A stretch of 64,000 nucleotides of DNA from an uncultured delta proteobacterium (GCA_963847445.1 CAWJZV010000045.1:160001-224000), one strand, 5' to 3'; positions 2,581-10,995 are shown, numbered from the stretch's first letter. Numbers and translations: made by a program. Notes: generated by a model not told the origin, from the sequence alone.

Positions 2581-3150
2581 TCAGCGCTGAATGCCAACCT
2601 TCTTGACCGCCTCTTTAGCGCGCTCCGATGTGATCGGCCCAATGACGATGTCACGGATGATGCCTTGGCGGTCAATAAAAAATGTCGCCGGCGGTCCGAA
2701 GATGCGATAGGCCCGTTTCACGGTGCTGTTCAGATCGAGGGCGATGGGAAAGACCAGCTTGGCCTCTTTGGCGTATTCGCTGACCGCGGCGCGGCTGTCT
2801 TCGACGGCGATGCCGAGCACCTGATAGTTGCCGGCGGCCTTCGCTGACAGTTCGTTGATGAGCGGCATTTCGTCGCGGCAGGGATCGCACCAGCTGGCAA
2901 AGAAATTAATCACCAGCGGCTTGCCGCGAAAGCTTTCCAGTCCTGCCGCTTTACCGTCCAGGGTTTTCAAATCGAAAGCGATAGCGGCGGCGCCAACCAC
3001 GGGCGCCGAGCTTGGCGGTGCCGGATGCACATGCTGCGCCCAAAGGCTATGTGCCTGTCAAGGCAAGGCTAAAGCAACGCTCGCGGTCAGTGGGCCGAAG
3101 CGCGCAGCTGCCCGTGAGTCAGTAATTCGCTTGCGTCGTGAAGTCTTCAT
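2581..3150 (-). CDS. TlpA/ResA-family thiol-disulfide oxidoreductase (signal region frameshifted)
   Basis: INFFASWCDPC (CxxC), GPPATFFIDRQGII; upstream ATG at 3150 overlaps the previous gene's stop. Confidence 0.85.
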
Positions 3151-4476
3151 TGTCCCACCGTCGCGCTTCGAAAAACCACTCTTGAGTCTTCGCCGTCGGT
3201 TTCCGTCCAAGCGACATGCAGTTGATTATTCCTAAGCGCCAGCGTCGCGCGGCTGGCGTTGCCTTTGCTGTTGCTGATTTGCTGGATCGGACTCCAGCTC
3301 CGGCCGTTGGCAGCGAGCGTGCGCATGTAGATTTGCGATCGGTTGTTGGTGTCGAGATTGCTCCAGGCGAAATAGATCTGTGTCGTCAGCGCCAACCACG
3401 AGATTATTATAGAGTGTTTCCGGCGCGGTGTTGCGGTGGATCAGGGTGCGCGGCGCGAAGCTTTTGCCGCCGTCTGTCGACACGCTGTAGTAAATGCCGG
3501 CCTCTGGTTCAGAGCGGCCCTGGGTGAACCAGCTGACGTGCAGATGGCCGCGCCGGTCTCGGCCGATGCTCGGGCCGGAGTGCGGGCAAGAGGGGACTTG
3601 CCAGCCGTCGTTGCTGATTTCCACCGGCGCGCCAAAGGTAGCGCCGCCGTCTAGCGACTTGCGCAACACATGGTTGCGAATCTTGTTGGCGTCGACTTCG
3701 CGATCGACCATATAAACCGTCTTGCCACCATCGGCAAAGTTGATGCCCAACTTGCAACATTCGCACAGGCCTTCGCCGACTTGATAATTCTTCGTCAGCG
3801 CTTGGCCGCGGGAATCGATCTTCATTAGATACAACTGGCGCGGTTTCGGACCGTCGATGCGGCGGTCGATCCAGGCGATCAATAGATTGCCATCGGGCAT
3901 GGTTTCGATGATCGGGAAGCGGCCAGCGTCTTGCACTTCGTTCACCGTGCGCGCCGCTGTGAAGCCGCCTTTGCCGTCTTCCATGGCAAAGCGAATGTTG
4001 GCGCGGGTCTTGTCGCCTTTGACTCCGGGAATCGACCAGACGACGAAAGCTTTATTGTCCGGCGTGAAGGCGACTTTCGGCCCGTTTTCTTCGCCTTGGA
4101 CGGCTTCGACAGTGTTGTTCAAACGCTTCGGCGCCGACCACGACTTGCCGCCGTCCTTCGACCAAGCGATCATCGCGTTGCGCATCGGCGAAGGGGCGCG
4201 GTCGCCACTCATCCGTTGGTGGCCAGTATGGCTGCCCTGCGGCCATGGAGTGTCGTGGTCTTCAGTCCAGACTGCGAACAGCCGACCATCGGGGCTGTAG
4301 CGTAAAAATGGCGTGGAGGGATTTTTCTCGCCATTGCCGAGCCGCCGCTCGGCGCCGAAGTTTAGCGATCTGGCGCCCTGGGTTGGAAAGGGCGCTTGCA
4401 AATCCGCACTACAGCCAAAAACCAATACAAAATACACCGCGAACCATGAGTGTGTGAAGCGAAGTTTCATAGCCAT
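3147..4476 (-). CDS. BNR/Asp-box (sialidase-like beta-propeller) lipoprotein with CECC and CPH motifs (frameshift near 3378)
   Basis: Asp-box repeats SKDGGKSWS, SLDGGATFG, STDGGKSFA; lipobox-like VFGC; C-terminus in ORF 3147..3395. Confidence 0.8.
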
Positions 4477-4567
4477 CACCTGCAAATTCACCGCACCGCG
4501 TCGTGTGCGGGGCGATCGATCGTTACCAGTAGCCGAGATTTCTCGGCAAGAAAGTGAAAATGCCGGA

Positions 4568-4964
4568 TCAGGCAAGCGGCGGGGCGCGTTGCGAGCAGGG
4601 TGACAAGCTAAAGACCGATGCGGCTCGCCAGTTGTGGCTCCTGGCGTCGCTGGCTGACGGAACCGATGAGCGCTATTTCGAACGGCTGAACCGGCGCGGC
4701 GTGACTATGCTGCGCCACCGACAGGACGACGCAGTCACTGGCTTGAGAAGCAGGCGCTGGTTTTTGCTCATGATCATGCTGATGCTCGCCGCCATGATCG
4801 TGGGTGGCGGCATGGGCGACATGCGAATCTTCGTGCCGAGCCTGCCGTTCGAAGAAGTGGTGCACCCGGTGTGGCGCCGACGCGATGAGAAAAAACAAAA
4901 GCGCTAAAGCGCTGCCGAAGTGGAGCGCCCTTGTGAGAACTGCGATTTGGTTGCCGGCTTGCAT
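4568..4964 (-). CDS. His-rich DUF2946-like small exported protein with C-terminal RAPP motif (candidate ribosome-arrest leader)
   Basis: TM/signal segment, HRVHH, HAATHDHGGEHQHDHE, SDC. The +1 frame from ~4650 reads ...VFSLSPCSQRAPPLA* (RAPP codons 4588-4577, TGA 4570-4568). Confidence 0.65.
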
Positions 4965-5028
4965 TTCTCTGTGACGGTTATCCTAGTAAGTCGGCAACCG
5001 AAGTTCAAGGCGAAGCTTCGCGCACTGC

Positions 5029-5458
5029 TCATTTGCGCGGTGAAGACCACTTTGTCGCTGGCATCCAATTCGGTCTGATGATCGTCGGCGACGACGCGCA
5101 GTTCCAAAACATGTTTGCCTGGCTTGATGCCGTTCAATGTCCCTTTGGCGCTCTCGAACATGCCCATCAGTTCGCCGTCGATATAAGCGTGGGCGTGGTG
5201 GCCGCGTTTGCCTTTGGTCAGTTGGTAGTGAATCTCTACTTTGTCCCCCTTTATGGTTTGACCCTTGGTCGGCGCGAGGATTTTGATCTTAGCGCCGTCG
5301 GCAGGCTGGAGCTTGGTGGCGGATGATTTTGCCAGCGCCGTTTTGCCGCTGGTTGCTCGTTGCCATGTTGATGCTGTTGCCCTTCAACTGCGACTGGTAA
5401 GAGGGTGAGAAGAAATGCCAACAGCGGCGTTTTTTAACAGCATTGATTTGATCCTCAT
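5029..5458 (-). CDS. Small exported His-containing protein (Ig-like, possible metal chaperone; frameshifted)
   Basis: Reconstructed signal peptide, then QHQH ... IKILAPTKGQTIKG...GHHAHAYIDG...GKHVLELRVVADDHQTELD. Confidence 0.55.
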
Positions 5459-5575
5459 TGACACAATTTCAGCATATTTCAGGTTTTGACGAAAGCTACG
5501 TTGAGTCTGAGATATTCCTTAGACGTTGGCGGGACGCAGTCTCTGTAGCTGAGGTCGAAGAAATTCCCTGACGTG

Positions 5576-6408
5576 TCAACGGTGCAAACGGAAGCGATAA
5601 ACGAAGGTAAACTCCGCGGGAACGTTTTGTCCGTCTCTTTGCGCCGGCTCGAAGCGCGATTGCTTCACCGCTTTGAGCGCTTCTTCATCGAAACCGGCGC
5701 CGCCGCTTTTGACGATTTCGGCATTGGTGACTTTGCCTTCCGGGTCGACTTCTATTCTCAGTGTCACGTCGCTTTCGAGGCCGGCGCGCAGCGCCATCGC
5801 CGGATAGGTGGCGCGCACGGTTTGAATCGGTTTGGCTTCGCGATTGGTTCTGCAACACGGTCTGCTGCACGGGTAGACCCGGCGCGCCGGAACCGCGACC
5901 TAAACCGGACGCCGCCGTGCCACCGCCGCCGCCGGCAGTTCCGGTGCCGGGCACTACGCCGACATCGCCTTTGCCGAACAAGATTGCCGGCGCCGGCTTC
6001 GCTGCCGCCGCCTTCTGATCTAGCCGTCGGACGGGATACTCGGACGCTTCCGTTCGCGCCGGCGCTCGTCGATTTTGTCTCTATAGGTTTCGCGATCTCA
6101 TCTTTTGTTACCGCCGCAAGCGCGGGAAGCAGCGCTTTTCGGGTTTGACGATGCTCGGTTTTCGCGGGCGATTTGGTATCCTTGATTTTCTCCGGCTTGG
6201 GCGGCGGCGCTTTCTTTGTTTCGGCTGGTAGCCTCGACCTTTTTCGCCTGTGCCGGGAGTACCGACGGCGGTAGATCGACCAATGCGATGGGCTGAAATT
6301 CTTGGCGGCGAAGATTGTTGTGAACTAACGCGGAAGCGAGTAGCCAAGATCGACCAGGTGAATGAGCAGCGACGAGACCAATGGCAGGTTGAGCGAATCA
6401 TTTCTCAT
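5576..6408 (-). CDS. tonB: Energy transducer TonB (frameshifted)
   Basis: ATG overlaps the exbD stop; TM SLLIH (S-x3-H) motif; Pro/Gly-rich linker; C-terminal TonB_C YPAMALRAGLESDVTLRIEVD...FEPAQRDG. Confidence 0.85.
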
Positions 6409-6818
6409 GGCCGGCTGTCTTTGGGTTTGATCGCGATGGCCATTTTGGCGACGCCGGCTTGGCGCGCTGCGTCCATGATCTCAATGACGACGCCATGCTC
6501 GACTTTTTCATCGGCGTTGATCAGCACCAGCAAGTCCGGATTCTTCGCCAGCCGGGCTTTCAGGATTTCGCCAATTTGGGCGCGCGGCACGTCCTGCTTG
6601 TCGATGGCAATTTTGCCGTCGGGCGCGATGGTTACCGCCGCGCTTTCACTCGGCGTTTGTTGGCCGGTGGCCGCTTTCGGCAGATTTACCGGCAGGCCGC
6701 TGTAGCGCGCCATCGACAGCGTCGAGATCATGAAGAAGACCAGCAGAAAAAAGATCGTATCGATCATCGGGATGATCTCGATACGAGCTTTCTTGATTTC
6801 TCGTCGGCGCAGGCGCAT
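6405..6818 (-). CDS. exbD: Biopolymer transporter ExbD/TolR
   Basis: IIPMIDTIFFLLVFFMI, LINADEKVEHGVVIEIMD. Confidence 0.92.
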   Translation of the reverse strand: MRLRRREIKKARIEIIPMIDTIFFLLVFFMISTLSMARYSGLPVNLPKAATGQQTPSESAAVTIAPDGKIAIDKQDVPRAQIGEILKARLAKNPDLLVLINADEKVEHGVVIEIMDAARQAGVAKMAIAIKPKDSRP

Positions 6819-7423
6819 CTACTTTTTCTCGTTGTCGCCGCTCAGGGCGAGCTCAAGGCGCGAAGCGTAGTACTCGATATCTTCCATTTCACGCTCGGCG
6901 CGATTGGAAAAATAGTTGTAGGGCACCAGGGTCAGGATCGCGATCAGCAAACCGGTGGCGGTGGCGATCAGCGCTTCGGCGACGCCGCCGGTGACGGCGT
7001 GGGGTTGGCCAATGCCGGCCTGCGACATGATGCCGAAGGAGCCGATCATGCCGGTGACGGTGCCGAGCAGGCCGAGTAACGGCGCCAGGGTGATGATCGT
7101 GTCGAGTATCGTCAGGCGCTGCTTTAGCACGGGCACTTCCCTTTGCGCCGCGACTTCGAGGGCTTTGGTGATGTCATTGCGGTGCGCCAGACCAGAGGCC
7201 ATCACGCGCACCAACGGCGAGTCGGTGTGCCGAGCCGACTCGGCTGGCCTTGTTCAGATCGCCGCGTTCGACCAGCTCAAGCAACTTTCGGCGGCTTGCC
7301 GGTTACCGATTCGGCGCCAAAAGAGGCAACGCTCGATGACAACCGTCAAGGCGATGACCGAACAAGCAGCAGCGGCGCCATGACCGGGCCGCCCTTGACG
7401 ATGATATCGATGAAGTCAAACAT
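6819..7423 (-). CDS. exbB: MotA/TolQ/ExbB proton channel protein (frameshifted 5' part)
   Basis: MFDFIDIIVKGGPVM start; APLLGLLGTVTGMI and GVAEALIATATGL motifs. Confidence 0.9.
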
Positions 7424-7455
7424 TGAGGGGTTTACTCTCCCGTGAAAAATTCAAG

Positions 7456-8714
7456 CTAGGAATGCGCCGGTTCCGCTCTCAGCGGGCGGAGCTTGTTCGC
7501 ACCGGTTCGCGGAAGAAGAGGAGCAACGTCATGCCAAGAAAATAGGAACAAGAGATAACGCCAAAGGTGGTTTGAAATCCCGAAGTGCTCATCAGCCAGC
7601 CGGCGAGCAAGCGTCCAAAACGGCGACATGATGAAACCGATGCAATAGTAGAGACTGAAAGCGGCATCGAGAATGTCTTCATCGGCGACATCGGTGAGCA
7701 GTGCTTGAGTCAAGGTTTGGCGCGAGGTGACCACCGCGCCATAGAGAATCAGGTTAGCGAACAAGCCGATGGATACATGATCTTGCAGGCTGAGCCAGAC
7801 CGTCGATAACGCCGAAAGCAGCAGTGATACTTGCAGTGTGCGCGTGCGATGAAAGCGGTCGGAGATCCAGCCCCAGGCCATGGGGCCGAGCAGGCCGCCG
7901 ACCTGAATCAGCGTGAACAGAAACGCGGCATAGGCCATGTCGACTTTCAGGTCGTTGATGAAATGGGGCACGATGTAGGTTTCGTTGATGCCATGGCCGA
8001 GGCCCGCGCCGCCGACCATCAAGACCAACGAGATCAGCAGGATGTTTTTGTTCTTGAGACAGCGCTTGTAAGCGTCCCAACCCATCGGGCGCTAGCTTCG
8101 ATTTTTGGATTTGCGCCGGGTTCAGCTTGATCGTGTCGCGCAGAGCCAGACAGGCGATGCCCATGAGTATGCTGGGAATGCCGACGATCCAAAAGATCGC
8201 GCGCCAACCTATGTGAGCCACCAGCACCGCGGCGACGATCGGCGCGACCAGACTGCCGAGATTGGCGGCAGTGGAGTGAAACGCCAAGGCGCGGCCGCGC
8301 GCTTTGCCAAAATAGGACGCCAGCGCCGTCGAGCCGACCGGATGCTGCGGACTGGTGCCGACGCCGCCGAGAACGCGGGTGAACATTATAAAGGGGTAAC
8401 TGGAGGCGAAGCCGGTGGCGACGACGGAGATGCCAAGCAGAATGTTGCCGACGCCCCAAGATCACGCCGCGGCGCACGTAAGGGACGATGAATCCGTAAA
8501 AGGCCTGGAGAAAATTACCGACAAAACCGTAAACCGCGGTAATCGCACCGATGGCGACAAAGCCGATGCCGAGATCGCGCATCATCAGCGGATAAAGCAC
8601 GCCCAGCATCGACGACTGAAAATGATTCAAAAAATGGGCGCCGCAGACGATCGAAAAGATCGCGGTCTTGCCTGACGGTTCGGTGGCGGTGTTACTGCTG
8701 GCAGCGTTTTCCAT
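7456..8714 (-). CDS. MFS transporter (FSR-like; frameshifted)
   Basis: Fragments 8034..8714, 7754..8386, 7456..8085; AHFLNH in TM1, QHP, GWISDRFHR motif A. Confidence 0.8.
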
Positions 8715-8884
8715 GATCTGTTTTTCTTATCTCAATTTATCGCGAAAACCAGCATCGCTGATAAGCGCTGACGGCTCTGCAGGCGTAATGACTGAGCGCC
8801 GAGTAGCGATTGAACCCCGACATCGCTGAGAAATAAGCCGAGCGCGATTGCGCTGTACTACGATATTTCATGACCAACATCCCC

Positions 8885-10938
8885 TTACCACATGTGGATC
8901 GTAATCCCAGCCTTGACGGTAAACGGATCGCCGGGTGTGAAATGCGAGCCAGTCTGCCCGGGCAGTCCTGCCGCCAGTTCGTTGGCGGTGCGAGACTCGA
9001 AAACATGCTCGGCGGAGCGCCATTTGGTATTGGCCAGGTTTTGAAACTGAACGAAGAATTCATAGCGCTTCCAGATATATTTTAGAAAGAGATCGAAAAT
9101 CGTCGCGGTCGGCGTCAGGATGCTGCCGTCTTCGATGCCGTAGCGACGGCCGATGTGGCGCATTTGCAATCTCGCCTGGAGGCCGGATTCGTGGCGCGCG
9201 GTGAGACCGCTGTAGGCAAGAAAACGCGGCGCCAGCGGAACCTTGTCGCCATTAACAAACTTTGCCCAGGTGTAGGAAATATCCGAATCGAAGGACAACC
9301 AGGGCAGGATATCGTAACGAACCTCGCTTTCTATGCCCTGACGTCTGCTTGCCCCGCTGGGCTCGAAGGTTCCCTCGTCGCCGACGAATACCAGTTCGCT
9401 GGACAGGTAGGAATTCCAGACGGACGTCGCTGAAATCCACTTTGTTCAAAAGCTTGGTCCGCACTCCGAGCTCCCCGGACCAGTAACGCGCGAGCGCTTT
9501 GGCTGGATCCTGAACGACGACGCGCGAGTCGTTGCTGTGAAAGCCGCCGCCCATGTTAACGAACAAGTTGGTTTGCCTGGCAATGTCATTGTCGGTGAAT
9601 GGCGTAAAAATCAAGTTCATTTTGGGATTTATCATCGACTTGGACGCCGCGCCGGAAATCGGCTGGGTGGCTGGCCCGTCTTGCTTTACATTGAACCAGA
9701 AGTTGTCGAGGCGCGCTCCTAGTTGAGCCCGCAACCATTCAGTCGAGTCGAACTTCTTGGTGCGCGAACCAGCCGAGGTTGGTTTGCTGAATACCGTTAT
9801 CGTTGGTGGTGCTCAGACCGCTGGCGGTCTTCCTGGTTGAACAAGCCGACACGTATGTGGTCGAAACGGCTCTGAAAGCCCAACAAAGTTTCAGTCGGCA
9901 GCCCCCACAAGCGAATAGCTGCGCCGGTAGGTAATGTTGTTGCCGGCCAGGAAACGTTTGTCGTTCTGCTCGATGCCGTCTCCGTTGACAGGGTTATTGA
10001 GAAACAAGCTGAAATTCGACCAGAGTTGCAACTTGTACCAAGAGGCCCAGGTTTGGGCGGTAAAAGTTTGATTGGCATCGGTATAGTTATAAATGAAACT
10101 CAAATTCTGCCGTTCTGACTTTCCGCCTTCGCTCGGATCGTTGGAACCGAAACGGCCGATTTCGCCGCTACGAACCTGCCTTGACGGAATCTCTCCGGAT
10201 GCGTCCCAATCGGTTTTGAAAAAGGTCCCCAAGAAATTTAGATTCGAGTTCGCGGTCGAAAAGAGATTGAACTTAGTCAAGATGTTGTAACGGATATAAT
10301 TATTGGGATTCTTAAACGCACCGTCATTGTGGTAGATCTCAGCGGCGATATAGGGCTTGAATAAGGTCCCCTCGGGCGGCGCAAGAATTCCGACATAGCG
10401 TTGGGTGTTATAACTGCCGCCGGAAAGAGTGAGAGTGCTGTCTTTGTCGCGATTCTTGGTGATGATGTTCATCGCGCCGGATGTAGCGAAGTCGCCCAGA
10501 TGGGCGAAGTACGAACCCTTGTAAATCTCGACCTTATCGATGGTCTCCGGGATCAGCCAGTGGAGATCGGCGTAGCCTTGACCATGGGCATGGCTGACCA
10601 TGTTTACCGGGATGCCGTCGATGAAAACCGCGAAGTCGGTGCCGTGGTCCGAATCGAAACCGCGAAACAGAATCTGATCGGCTTTGCCGCCGCCATGATG
10701 CTGGCCGATGATCAGTCCCGGCACTAATCGCATGACGTCGCTCGGTGTATTGGTCGGACGAAGCTCCAGGTCTCTTGCCGTTCGTGTTTGTTCGGTTGCA
10801 GCAGAGGTAGGCTGCTGACCCCAAACATACTCTTCAATGGGGTCATTCGTTGGGCTTTGAGCGAATCCCAAGCTAGCGTGGACAATGCACGCGACTGGTA
10901 AAACAAATCTGATAAGAGCGCAAAGCTGGTTTCATCAT
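8885..10938 (-). CDS. TonB-dependent receptor, putative Ni/Co/Zn uptake (frameshifted)
   Basis: Plug QHHGGGKADQ...SHAHGQGYAD...IDKVEIYKG; barrel fragments; C-terminal HFTPGDPFTVKAGITIHMW; lies directly downstream of nikR. Confidence 0.88.
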
Positions 10939-10952
10939 ATTGATTCTTCTAA

Positions 10953-10979
10953 ATAGTACAAATTTAAAATTCGTGCTAC
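10953..10979. promoter_or_regulatory. Candidate NikR operator upstream of the TBDR
   Basis: ATAGTAC-aaatttaaaattc-GTGCTAC, an imperfect 7-13-7 palindrome that matches the site at 11434-11460. Confidence 0.7.
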
Positions 10980-10995
10980 GATCAGTCAAAAAAAT

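Follow-up and report, generated by a model that had tools for sequence, protein, structure and literature searches.

The subject of this study is a leader-peptide gene on the minus strand of a window of 64,000 nucleotides from an uncultured delta proteobacterium (GCA_963847445.1, CAWJZV010000045.1:160001-224000). The gene belongs to a same-strand cluster with the order NikR, TonB-dependent receptor, major facilitator superfamily (MFS) protein, ExbB/D, TonB, a small exported protein, the leader, a BNR-propeller lipoprotein and a TlpA-like thioredoxin (Table 1; positions are counted from the first nucleotide of the window). An earlier, sequence-only reading of this DNA had taken the gene downstream of the leader for that of a BNR lipoprotein, and this was borne out by Pfam matches and a lipobox. 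The locus probably encodes a leader peptide of 131 residues, anchored in the membrane and of the CruR/CutF type, split in the window by a spurious base, which would control the next genes through a metal-sensing ribosomal stall.

Table 1. Features of the leader locus, with positions in the window
Feature	Position	Strand	Basis or remarks
Leader gene, corrected reading	4568..4964	minus	ATG 4964-4962, 131 codons and stop TGA 4570-4568 if the extra base is disregarded
Codons of the N-terminal transmembrane/signal-anchor helix, residues 3-29	4878..4958	minus	AlphaFold helix, block pLDDT (predicted local distance difference test) 92 and 88
PHRVHH, residues 31-36, directly after the helix	4857..4874	minus	Invariant in 65/65
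His-rich linker, residues 37-77, variable	4734..4856	minus	Median 5 His, range 0-21; length varies
Sensor-like C78-x6-Q85-x2-H88	4701..4733	minus	C78 invariant; Q85 and H88 at least 90%; short helix 75-86 predicted, low confidence
Frame-breaking single extra base	4625..4626 (either position fits the alignments)	minus	Relative to L002, L003 and the run contigs
Arrest-peptide-like tail SVFSLSPCSQRAPPLA	4571..4618	minus	Read from the next frame; RAPP at 4588-4577
Helix 5' arm	4595..4610	minus	Codons F-S-L-S-P-C, core UCACC
Helix 3' arm	4470..4483	minus	Shine-Dalgarno AGGUGA 4481-4476, first ATG 4476-4474, first base of likely start ATG 4470-4468
Small spacer hairpin GCCGAG-AAAU-CUCGGC	4532..4547	minus	In minimum free energy and centroid folds
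C-over-G stretch, possible Rho loading region	4508..4660	minus	C minus G +0.13 to +0.15 in 78-nt windows; leader 3' end and first half of the spacer
BNR/sialidase-fold beta-propeller lipoprotein gene	3147..4470	minus	Pfam BNR_2/BNR, lipobox VFGC; frame-broken near 3301-3377
TlpA/ResA-like thiol-disulfide oxidoreductase gene	2581..3225	minus	Open reading frame 2581-3030; orthologues; match 3225-2584
Small exported His-bearing beta-sandwich protein gene (GHHAHAYIDGE)	4990..5433	minus	Frame-broken: four extra bases at 5011-5035
NikR-family gene heading the same-strand cluster	10996..11442	minus	Orthologue with NikR_C and RHH_1

Reading frame of the leader gene

Read as it stands, the open reading frame (ORF) of the leader runs from 4964 to 4608 on the minus strand, encodes 118 amino acids and terminates at a TAG codon (4610-4608). 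The adjacent frame continues as AASVFSLSPCSQRAPPLA up to the TGA codon at 4570-4568. The sequence-only reading had ended the ORF and placed the RAPP codons in just this way, and had proposed that one indel would yield a protein with a transmembrane segment, a His-rich segment and a C-terminal RAPP; alignment of homologous loci upheld both points. When the DNA was aligned with that of the two nearest sister genomes (L002 and L003, whose leader proteins, 91% and 80% identical to that of the window, are the closest among the loci of the genus), a single extra base was located in the window, at 'ctggcGAgccgc'. An ORF search of 41 related genomes yielded matches in 21, the window's own genome included, and in all 11 of the 11 loci from other genomes of the genus one continuous frame leads to SQRAPPL[AVIL] or RAPPVA. 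A near-identical intact protein of 131 residues (P0001) is present in public data. In addition, contigs from the four best public sequencing runs, which derive from four studies, cover the site; all four have one base fewer at 4625 or 4626, and all are also without four window bases within 5011-5035, where the upstream gene ends.

When compared with a sister genome, five consecutive genes (window 3147-11054) showed changes of frame, i.e., those for the TonB-dependent receptor (two frames), the MFS protein (three), TonB (three), the leader and the BNR lipoprotein (two). Given that five adjacent genes are frame-broken and that the extra base is missing in both the sisters and the run contigs, the break in the leader is likely to be an assembly error. 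Programmed frameshifting was considered and rejected, as the relatives encode the leader in a single frame and no slippery run was seen at the site. Without polishing, the window is unreliable for gene calling, and a single assembly indel can conceal such a leader from gene callers. ExbB also looks truncated, and elsewhere in the window positions 17300-24200, about 7 kb, hold no ORF of at least 150 amino acids on either strand, a stretch that may reflect heavy frame breakage or non-coding DNA.

Anatomy and kinship of the leader family

Searches with the intact leader identified 65 homologues in a collection of 5.8 billion proteins, with a Pfam domain on record for none of them. A profile built from these homologues retrieved, from 1.84 billion proteins, 204 cluster representatives with E <= 1e-3, and with so few representatives in a collection of this size the family is a small one. 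Its members share one order of parts: a basic N-terminus, a hydrophobic helix, PHRVHH, a variable His-rich linker, C-x6-Q-x2-H, approximately 35 variable residues, and the sequence (F)NPSP(F/C)SQRAPPL directly before the stop. The N-terminal basic residues followed by a hydrophobic run were also found in the relatives, and the invariant positions of the alignment are F25, P31-H36, C78, R126, A127 and P128. In the AlphaFold model, the transmembrane helix (residues 3-29) is confident, residues 75-86 form a weak helix and the remainder is predicted to be disordered.

The two motifs at either end of the protein are widely kept. PHR[VIL]HH was found in 186 of 207 proteins, and R[AG]PP lies within the last 12 residues in 185 of them, in agreement with the C-terminal RAPP that the sequence-only reading had anticipated in homologues; most of the exceptions lacking one or the other motif look truncated. 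RAPP at a C-terminus is reported to arrest ribosomes with its Pro codons in the P and A sites (PMC12992588). Exactly two residues follow RAPP in 141 of the 168 proteins that carry both motifs. Moreover, of the 118 members in which the Cys motif was found, 116 have the Cys 47 residues ahead of the Arg of RAPP and the other two have it 48 residues ahead. Among the 168 full-length members, CxxC occurs in none and CxxxC in two. The sequence-only reading had described a His cluster that takes the place of CxxC; this needs correction, because a single invariant Cys is present alongside the His residues.

The relation to DUF2946 (PF11162), whose prototype is CruR (Bp2923) of Bordetella pertussis, a Rho-dependent leader with CXXC and RAPP (PMC9426467), was examined by a search with the Pfam profile. 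The window ORF scored 15.7 bits and the intact protein P0001 16.2 bits, against a gathering cut-off of 23.7. Below the cut-off, 43 of the 65 members matched the profile over nearly its full length (E <= 1; best 7.1e-4), and none of the 65 was reported above it. The top ESM Atlas cluster was DUF2946, with a score of 0.96 and 179 shared features. The kinship with DUF2946 leaders that the sequence-only reading had drawn on thus stands as a resemblance, and formal membership fails at the cut-off. We conclude that the leaders have the same architecture as DUF2946 and are probably its distant kin; by sequence they are not DUF2946 under Pfam's rule and are without its defining CxxC. Nothing above the cut-off was found when the window's own genome was searched with PF11162, and only 2 of 151 genomes of the phylum contain such matches, too few for a profile. 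In L123, a CxxC/RAPP protein from the same phylum, the helix is followed by HRAHC, the Cys motif reads CSIC, and RAPP comes 45 residues after the second Cys.

No second copy of the leader was found in the window's own genome. Additional copies were seen elsewhere: a sister genome (locus L016) carries three PHRVHH/RAPP leaders on the reverse strand within 16 kb (6782-7150, 9719-10132 and 12681-13286), one of which is open over 201 codons and has a very long His-rich linker, and in the sister G003 there is a second copy, which is frameshifted in its turn. In a sister subgroup (L032, L033, L035, L036, L110, L113, L118), the leaders end in FQIRAPP or in RAPP followed by 8-10 residues, and the BNR lipoprotein is replaced by ...HGVIGKRF(I/F)P...DDPF proteins or DUF4198-like proteins. 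The window's genome also contains a second candidate arrest leader (L125 4089-4382, minus strand, corresponding to contig C24 at about 190085-190381). It has 98 amino acids, a transmembrane helix, LHFH and CSC motifs and RGPP seven residues from its end, and is followed by a 356-residue exported protein without a Pfam family, a frameshift-split ZnuA, a fragment of an ATP-binding cassette (ABC) ATPase and an ABC-3 permease.

Proposed coupling of the leader to the downstream genes

Folding of positions 4625-4455 gave, in both the minimum free energy (MFE) and the centroid structure, a 14-bp helix with two 1-nt bulges that joins 4610-4595 to 4483-4470. The pairing proposed in the sequence-only reading, 4609-4595 with 4483-4471, is therefore present. 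The helix buries the lipoprotein gene's Shine-Dalgarno (SD) sequence and both of its candidate start codons, the first ATG wholly and the second by its A (4470). Of 46 distinct loci, 16 have an MFE fold in which the SD is paired to positions -9 to -19 as counted from the Arg codon, and in six further loci (L039, L044, L055, L056, L059, L073) it pairs with +4 to +22. When projected on the 20 loci with short spacers (91-106 nt), the window helix was kept, over 19 distinct relatives, in 80.2% of cells, as compared with 31-59% for a slid partner, and four of its pairs were changed on both sides, e.g., AGCU:GGCU in the clade of the window vs GACG:UGUC elsewhere. The Ser/Ala-Pro codons of the core are biased at synonymous sites toward xCA CCY, with A as the third base in 34 of 77 cases (background 15%) and C or T as the third base of the Pro codon in 68 of 77 (background 42%). 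Own-locus duplexes were stronger than cross-locus ones (-11.46 vs -10.47 kcal/mol), and a value as low was reached in 42 of 10,000 permutations, it being understood that the sequences are related and that such binomial and permutation figures overstate significance. As judged by comparison, the helix is supported in the short-spacer subgroup alone. A further spacer hairpin (4491-4510, minus strand), CCGCAC...GUGCGG, lies just 5' of the SD and in L002 reads CCGCGC...GCGCGG, with both arms changed as judged by eye. Its G-rich arm pairs in the MFE fold with the RAPP codons, and alternative folds are possible.

To describe the gene neighbourhood, 103 leader ORFs were collected from the fetched loci, with 11 own or duplicate loci set aside and identical contigs kept. 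For 82 of the leaders another ORF lay no more than 450 nt downstream, and in 59 of these 82 it encodes a BNR lipoprotein homologue. The lipoprotein is far more conserved than the leader, with approximately 70% identity across very diverse loci, and its invariant residues include C236-E-C-C239 (CECCK), C295-P-H297 (SCPH), H84, H267 and H311. Its model is a sialidase-fold propeller (pLDDT 81), and a fold search with it returned generic sialidase-fold propellers alone (template modelling scores 0.45-0.64), with no functional lead; an NCBIfam search gave just a weak PDIAV_lipo match. The gene for the TlpA/ResA-like thioredoxin usually comes next. Beta-sandwich proteins with weak CtaG_Cox11 matches also follow the lipoprotein; these 'Cox11-like' neighbours were rejected as evidence for copper because they contain 1-3 Cys in total. 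The lipoprotein appears to be an as yet unstudied redox or metal protein of the periplasm.

Upstream of the leader, the small exported His-bearing protein is almost always present (68 loci). In the window (4990-5433), as in L025 (3523-3924), this protein has an N-terminal QHDHS segment and GHHAHAY(V/I)DGE; it gave just a weak BiPBP_C match and is fused to the C-terminus of CopD in two lineages. The genes further upstream vary and encode ZnuA/ZnuC/ZnuB-type importers (ZnuB in 33 loci) or DUF4198-CopC-CopD. The module is found in ZnuABC, NikR-TonB or CopC/CopD clusters, and directly downstream is the BNR lipoprotein, which is not known for a role with metals, with its invariant CxCC/CPH motifs and its TlpA neighbour. 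The sequence-only reading had placed the leader inside a NikR regulon, which is an overstatement. NikR, the TonB-dependent receptor, the MFS protein and TonB lie upstream just in this genus, in five loci including the window, and the search of 10860-11560 for a NikR operator yielded no convincing palindrome, only one of 10 nt, the operator consensus of this lineage not being known. On synteny, the NikR link is local to the genus, and the metal cannot be named from the context.

From these features we infer a stall and a metal input, with the sign of the response and the route of coupling, in the following form. The N-terminal helix would target the nascent chain to the membrane, where PHRVHH, the His-rich linker and the invariant Cys, held at its fixed distance from RAPP, would make up a metal-binding sensor. 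The stall would leave the P and A sites of the ribosome occupied by the two Pro codons of SQRAPP, and metal occupancy of the emerged sensor would alter the length of the stall, which in turn would set the expression of the CxCC/CPH beta-propeller lipoprotein and the TlpA-like thioredoxin. Coupling would most likely occur via the mRNA, as the UCACC codons 5' of RAPP can pair with the lipoprotein SD and start; the helix may be held open by stalled or queued ribosomes, possibly in combination with the shielding of a C-rich stretch from Rho.

Two other explanations would deny the window a working switch. It is unlikely, in our estimation, that the frameshift is real and that the leader and several of its neighbours are decaying pseudogenes in this strain, with the switch dead there. 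Decay would fit the five genes in a row that switch frame, and the extra base, carried by the window itself, lies outside any homopolymer run. However, frame breaks also affect a ZnuA gene on another contig of the same genome, a sister assembly is broken too, at other positions, and outside the breaks the identity of the coding sequence to the sister genome is still 69-97% in the main aligned pieces. Furthermore, all five indel differences common to the four runs in a 1-kb stretch are extra bases of the window, four of them within 25 nt, which looks like consensus error. Less probable again is a plain small membrane-anchored metal-binding protein or chaperone of an uptake system, with a C-terminus that serves structure or sorting and causes no stall. 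Conservation with metal-transport genes and the richness in His and Cys would suit such a protein, and the leader function is itself something we infer. Against it stand the near-constant placement of RAPP two residues from the stop, the avoidance of RAPP in bacterial proteomes save at the C-termini of small exported arrest-peptide proteins (PMC12992588), and a body that is predicted to be disordered, as is reported for CruR.

The proposed switch also has evidence against it. A search for reads of the window's own sample found none, and the four runs represent relatives only, with at most 25% of sampled words matching. The leader model is of low confidence outside the transmembrane helix (mean pLDDT 60), and the relation to DUF2946 is weak, both in the missing CxxC and in the scores under the cut-off; hhalign of the leader alignment against the single protein L123 aligned just the last 27 residues, with a probability of 1.7%. 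Taken over all 171 nt, the fold has an ordinary stability (z = -0.68), the six core SD pairs hardly vary, and the double changes are few and come from few clades. With RNAalifold, the 20 short-spacer loci gave just a local hairpin of 3 bp and no long-range consensus helix. The own-locus duplex is weak in many long-spacer loci (-3 to -10 kcal/mol), and the pairing of a control segment taken from further upstream is almost as good (Wilcoxon p = 0.075). Finally, the 5' arm of the helix is situated 13-28 nt upstream of the P-site codon, where the footprint of a stalled ribosome (modelled as -9 to +22) has its edge, and one such ribosome left SD accessibility flat, at 0.288 -> 0.281 in the 20 short-spacer and 0.373 -> 0.371 in the 26 long-spacer loci. 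Adding a queued ribosome raised the modelled accessibility to 0.40 and 0.42, respectively.

Because the model shows no opening of the helix by one stalled ribosome, Rho-type attenuation stays a rival, which we regard as a serious possibility and the less probable course. Here the leader and the stall would be the same and the output transcriptional, as in CruR: the ribosome would shield the C-rich stretch, its relief would allow Rho termination before the BNR gene, and the SD helix would be secondary or incidental. The C-over-G stretch (4660-4508) is laid out as described for cruR in PMC9426467, an intrinsic terminator was looked for in the spacer and none was found, and many relatives have spacers of 200-237 nt, with weak anti-SD pairing. 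Nevertheless, Rho does not explain the synonymous bias toward the anti-SD core, nor the retention of the helix, with two-sided changes, in the short-spacer group, and the C-richness is partly due to Pro, Ser and Ala codons, with the rut site a candidate. For the clade of the window, masking of the SD is the more likely coupling of the two, and both may act together.

Comparison with known arrest leaders

The leader is real, and the class to which it belongs is already defined by CruR and CutF; its main interest is in the chemistry of the sensor and in the highly conserved target of undescribed function. The description of CruR dates from 2022 and that of CutF from 2023, which makes metal-sensing arrest peptides a recent class. 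The present family adds a sensor that has no CxxC, from a soil lineage not yet cultured, a fixed ruler of 47 residues from the sensor Cys to the stall site, and an unstudied, very conserved target, the CxCC/CPH propeller lipoprotein with its TlpA partner, which may represent a new step in periplasmic metal handling. To our knowledge, the tested examples of metal-sensing arrest peptides concern copper alone. More tentatively, and with some doubt, the PHRVHH/single-Cys leaders might constitute a separate RAPP clade that senses a non-copper divalent metal (Ni, Zn or Co) at the membrane. Their UCA CCY Ser-Pro codons would double as the anti-SD and gate an undescribed periplasmic system, in which the propeller lipoprotein would be kept reduced by the TlpA-like thioredoxin and joined to whichever metal importer the genome carries.

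CruR uses a C-terminal RAPP to control a downstream receptor (PMC9426467, PMC12992588). Like the present leader, it is small, exported or membrane-targeted and poorly structured in its body, has RAPP 2-3 residues before the stop, and precedes a metal-related gene, here a putative one, at the distance of a long spacer, with a C-rich stretch crossing the end of its gene. The metal motif in both is at a fixed distance from RAPP, i.e., 45 residues after CXXC in CruR and 47 after the single Cys here (the DUF2946 spacing was taken as 45 +/- 1-2). Unlike CruR, the present leader has PHRVHH, a His-rich linker and one Cys in place of CXXC, scores under the PF11162 cut-off, and stands in the middle of a same-strand cluster and not at its head. 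The target of CruR is a TonB-dependent transporter and that of the present leader would be the BNR-propeller lipoprotein, with Rho as a candidate participant.

CutF of Rhodobacter capsulatus has CxxxC, PPP and a stem-loop that shields the SD (PMC9973294; bioRxiv 10.1101/2025.02.05.636593). It shares with the present leader a sensor that is exported co-translationally, a C-terminal proline stall motif and an mRNA helix over the next SD. It differs in its CxxxC, in its PPP motif, in its dependence on elongation factor P and in a stem-loop that lies within the spacer; in the window, the 5' arm of the helix is within the last codons of the leader, and the downstream gene is another one. His-only CutF-like clusters beside Ni/Co-type genes have already been published (PMC9973294). 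In the main text of that paper, the terms BNR, sialidase, thioredoxin and ZnuA were not found, and two of its supplementary files do not mention a BNR or sialidase-type neighbour. A literature search retrieved no paper on a nickel-sensing RAPP peptide, and one directed at zinc had nothing relevant among the matches listed.

RAPP/RGPP leaders precede many metal genes (Fujiwara et al. 2025, PMC12992588). As with the present family, the proteins of that study are small, membrane-bound or secreted, and encoded upstream of non-Sec genes, including those of metal homeostasis; BNR, sialidase and Binatia were not found in seven of its eight supplementary files. Lastly, SecM, ApdA and ApdP, which monitor Sec/YidC, also have an arrest core of the RAxP type at the C-terminus of an exported leader, and the output of SecM is the unmasking of an SD. 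The present leader differs from them in that it is followed by genes for the BNR lipoprotein and the TlpA-like protein and not for Sec/YidC components, and in that its likely input is a metal and not the pulling force of the translocon alone.

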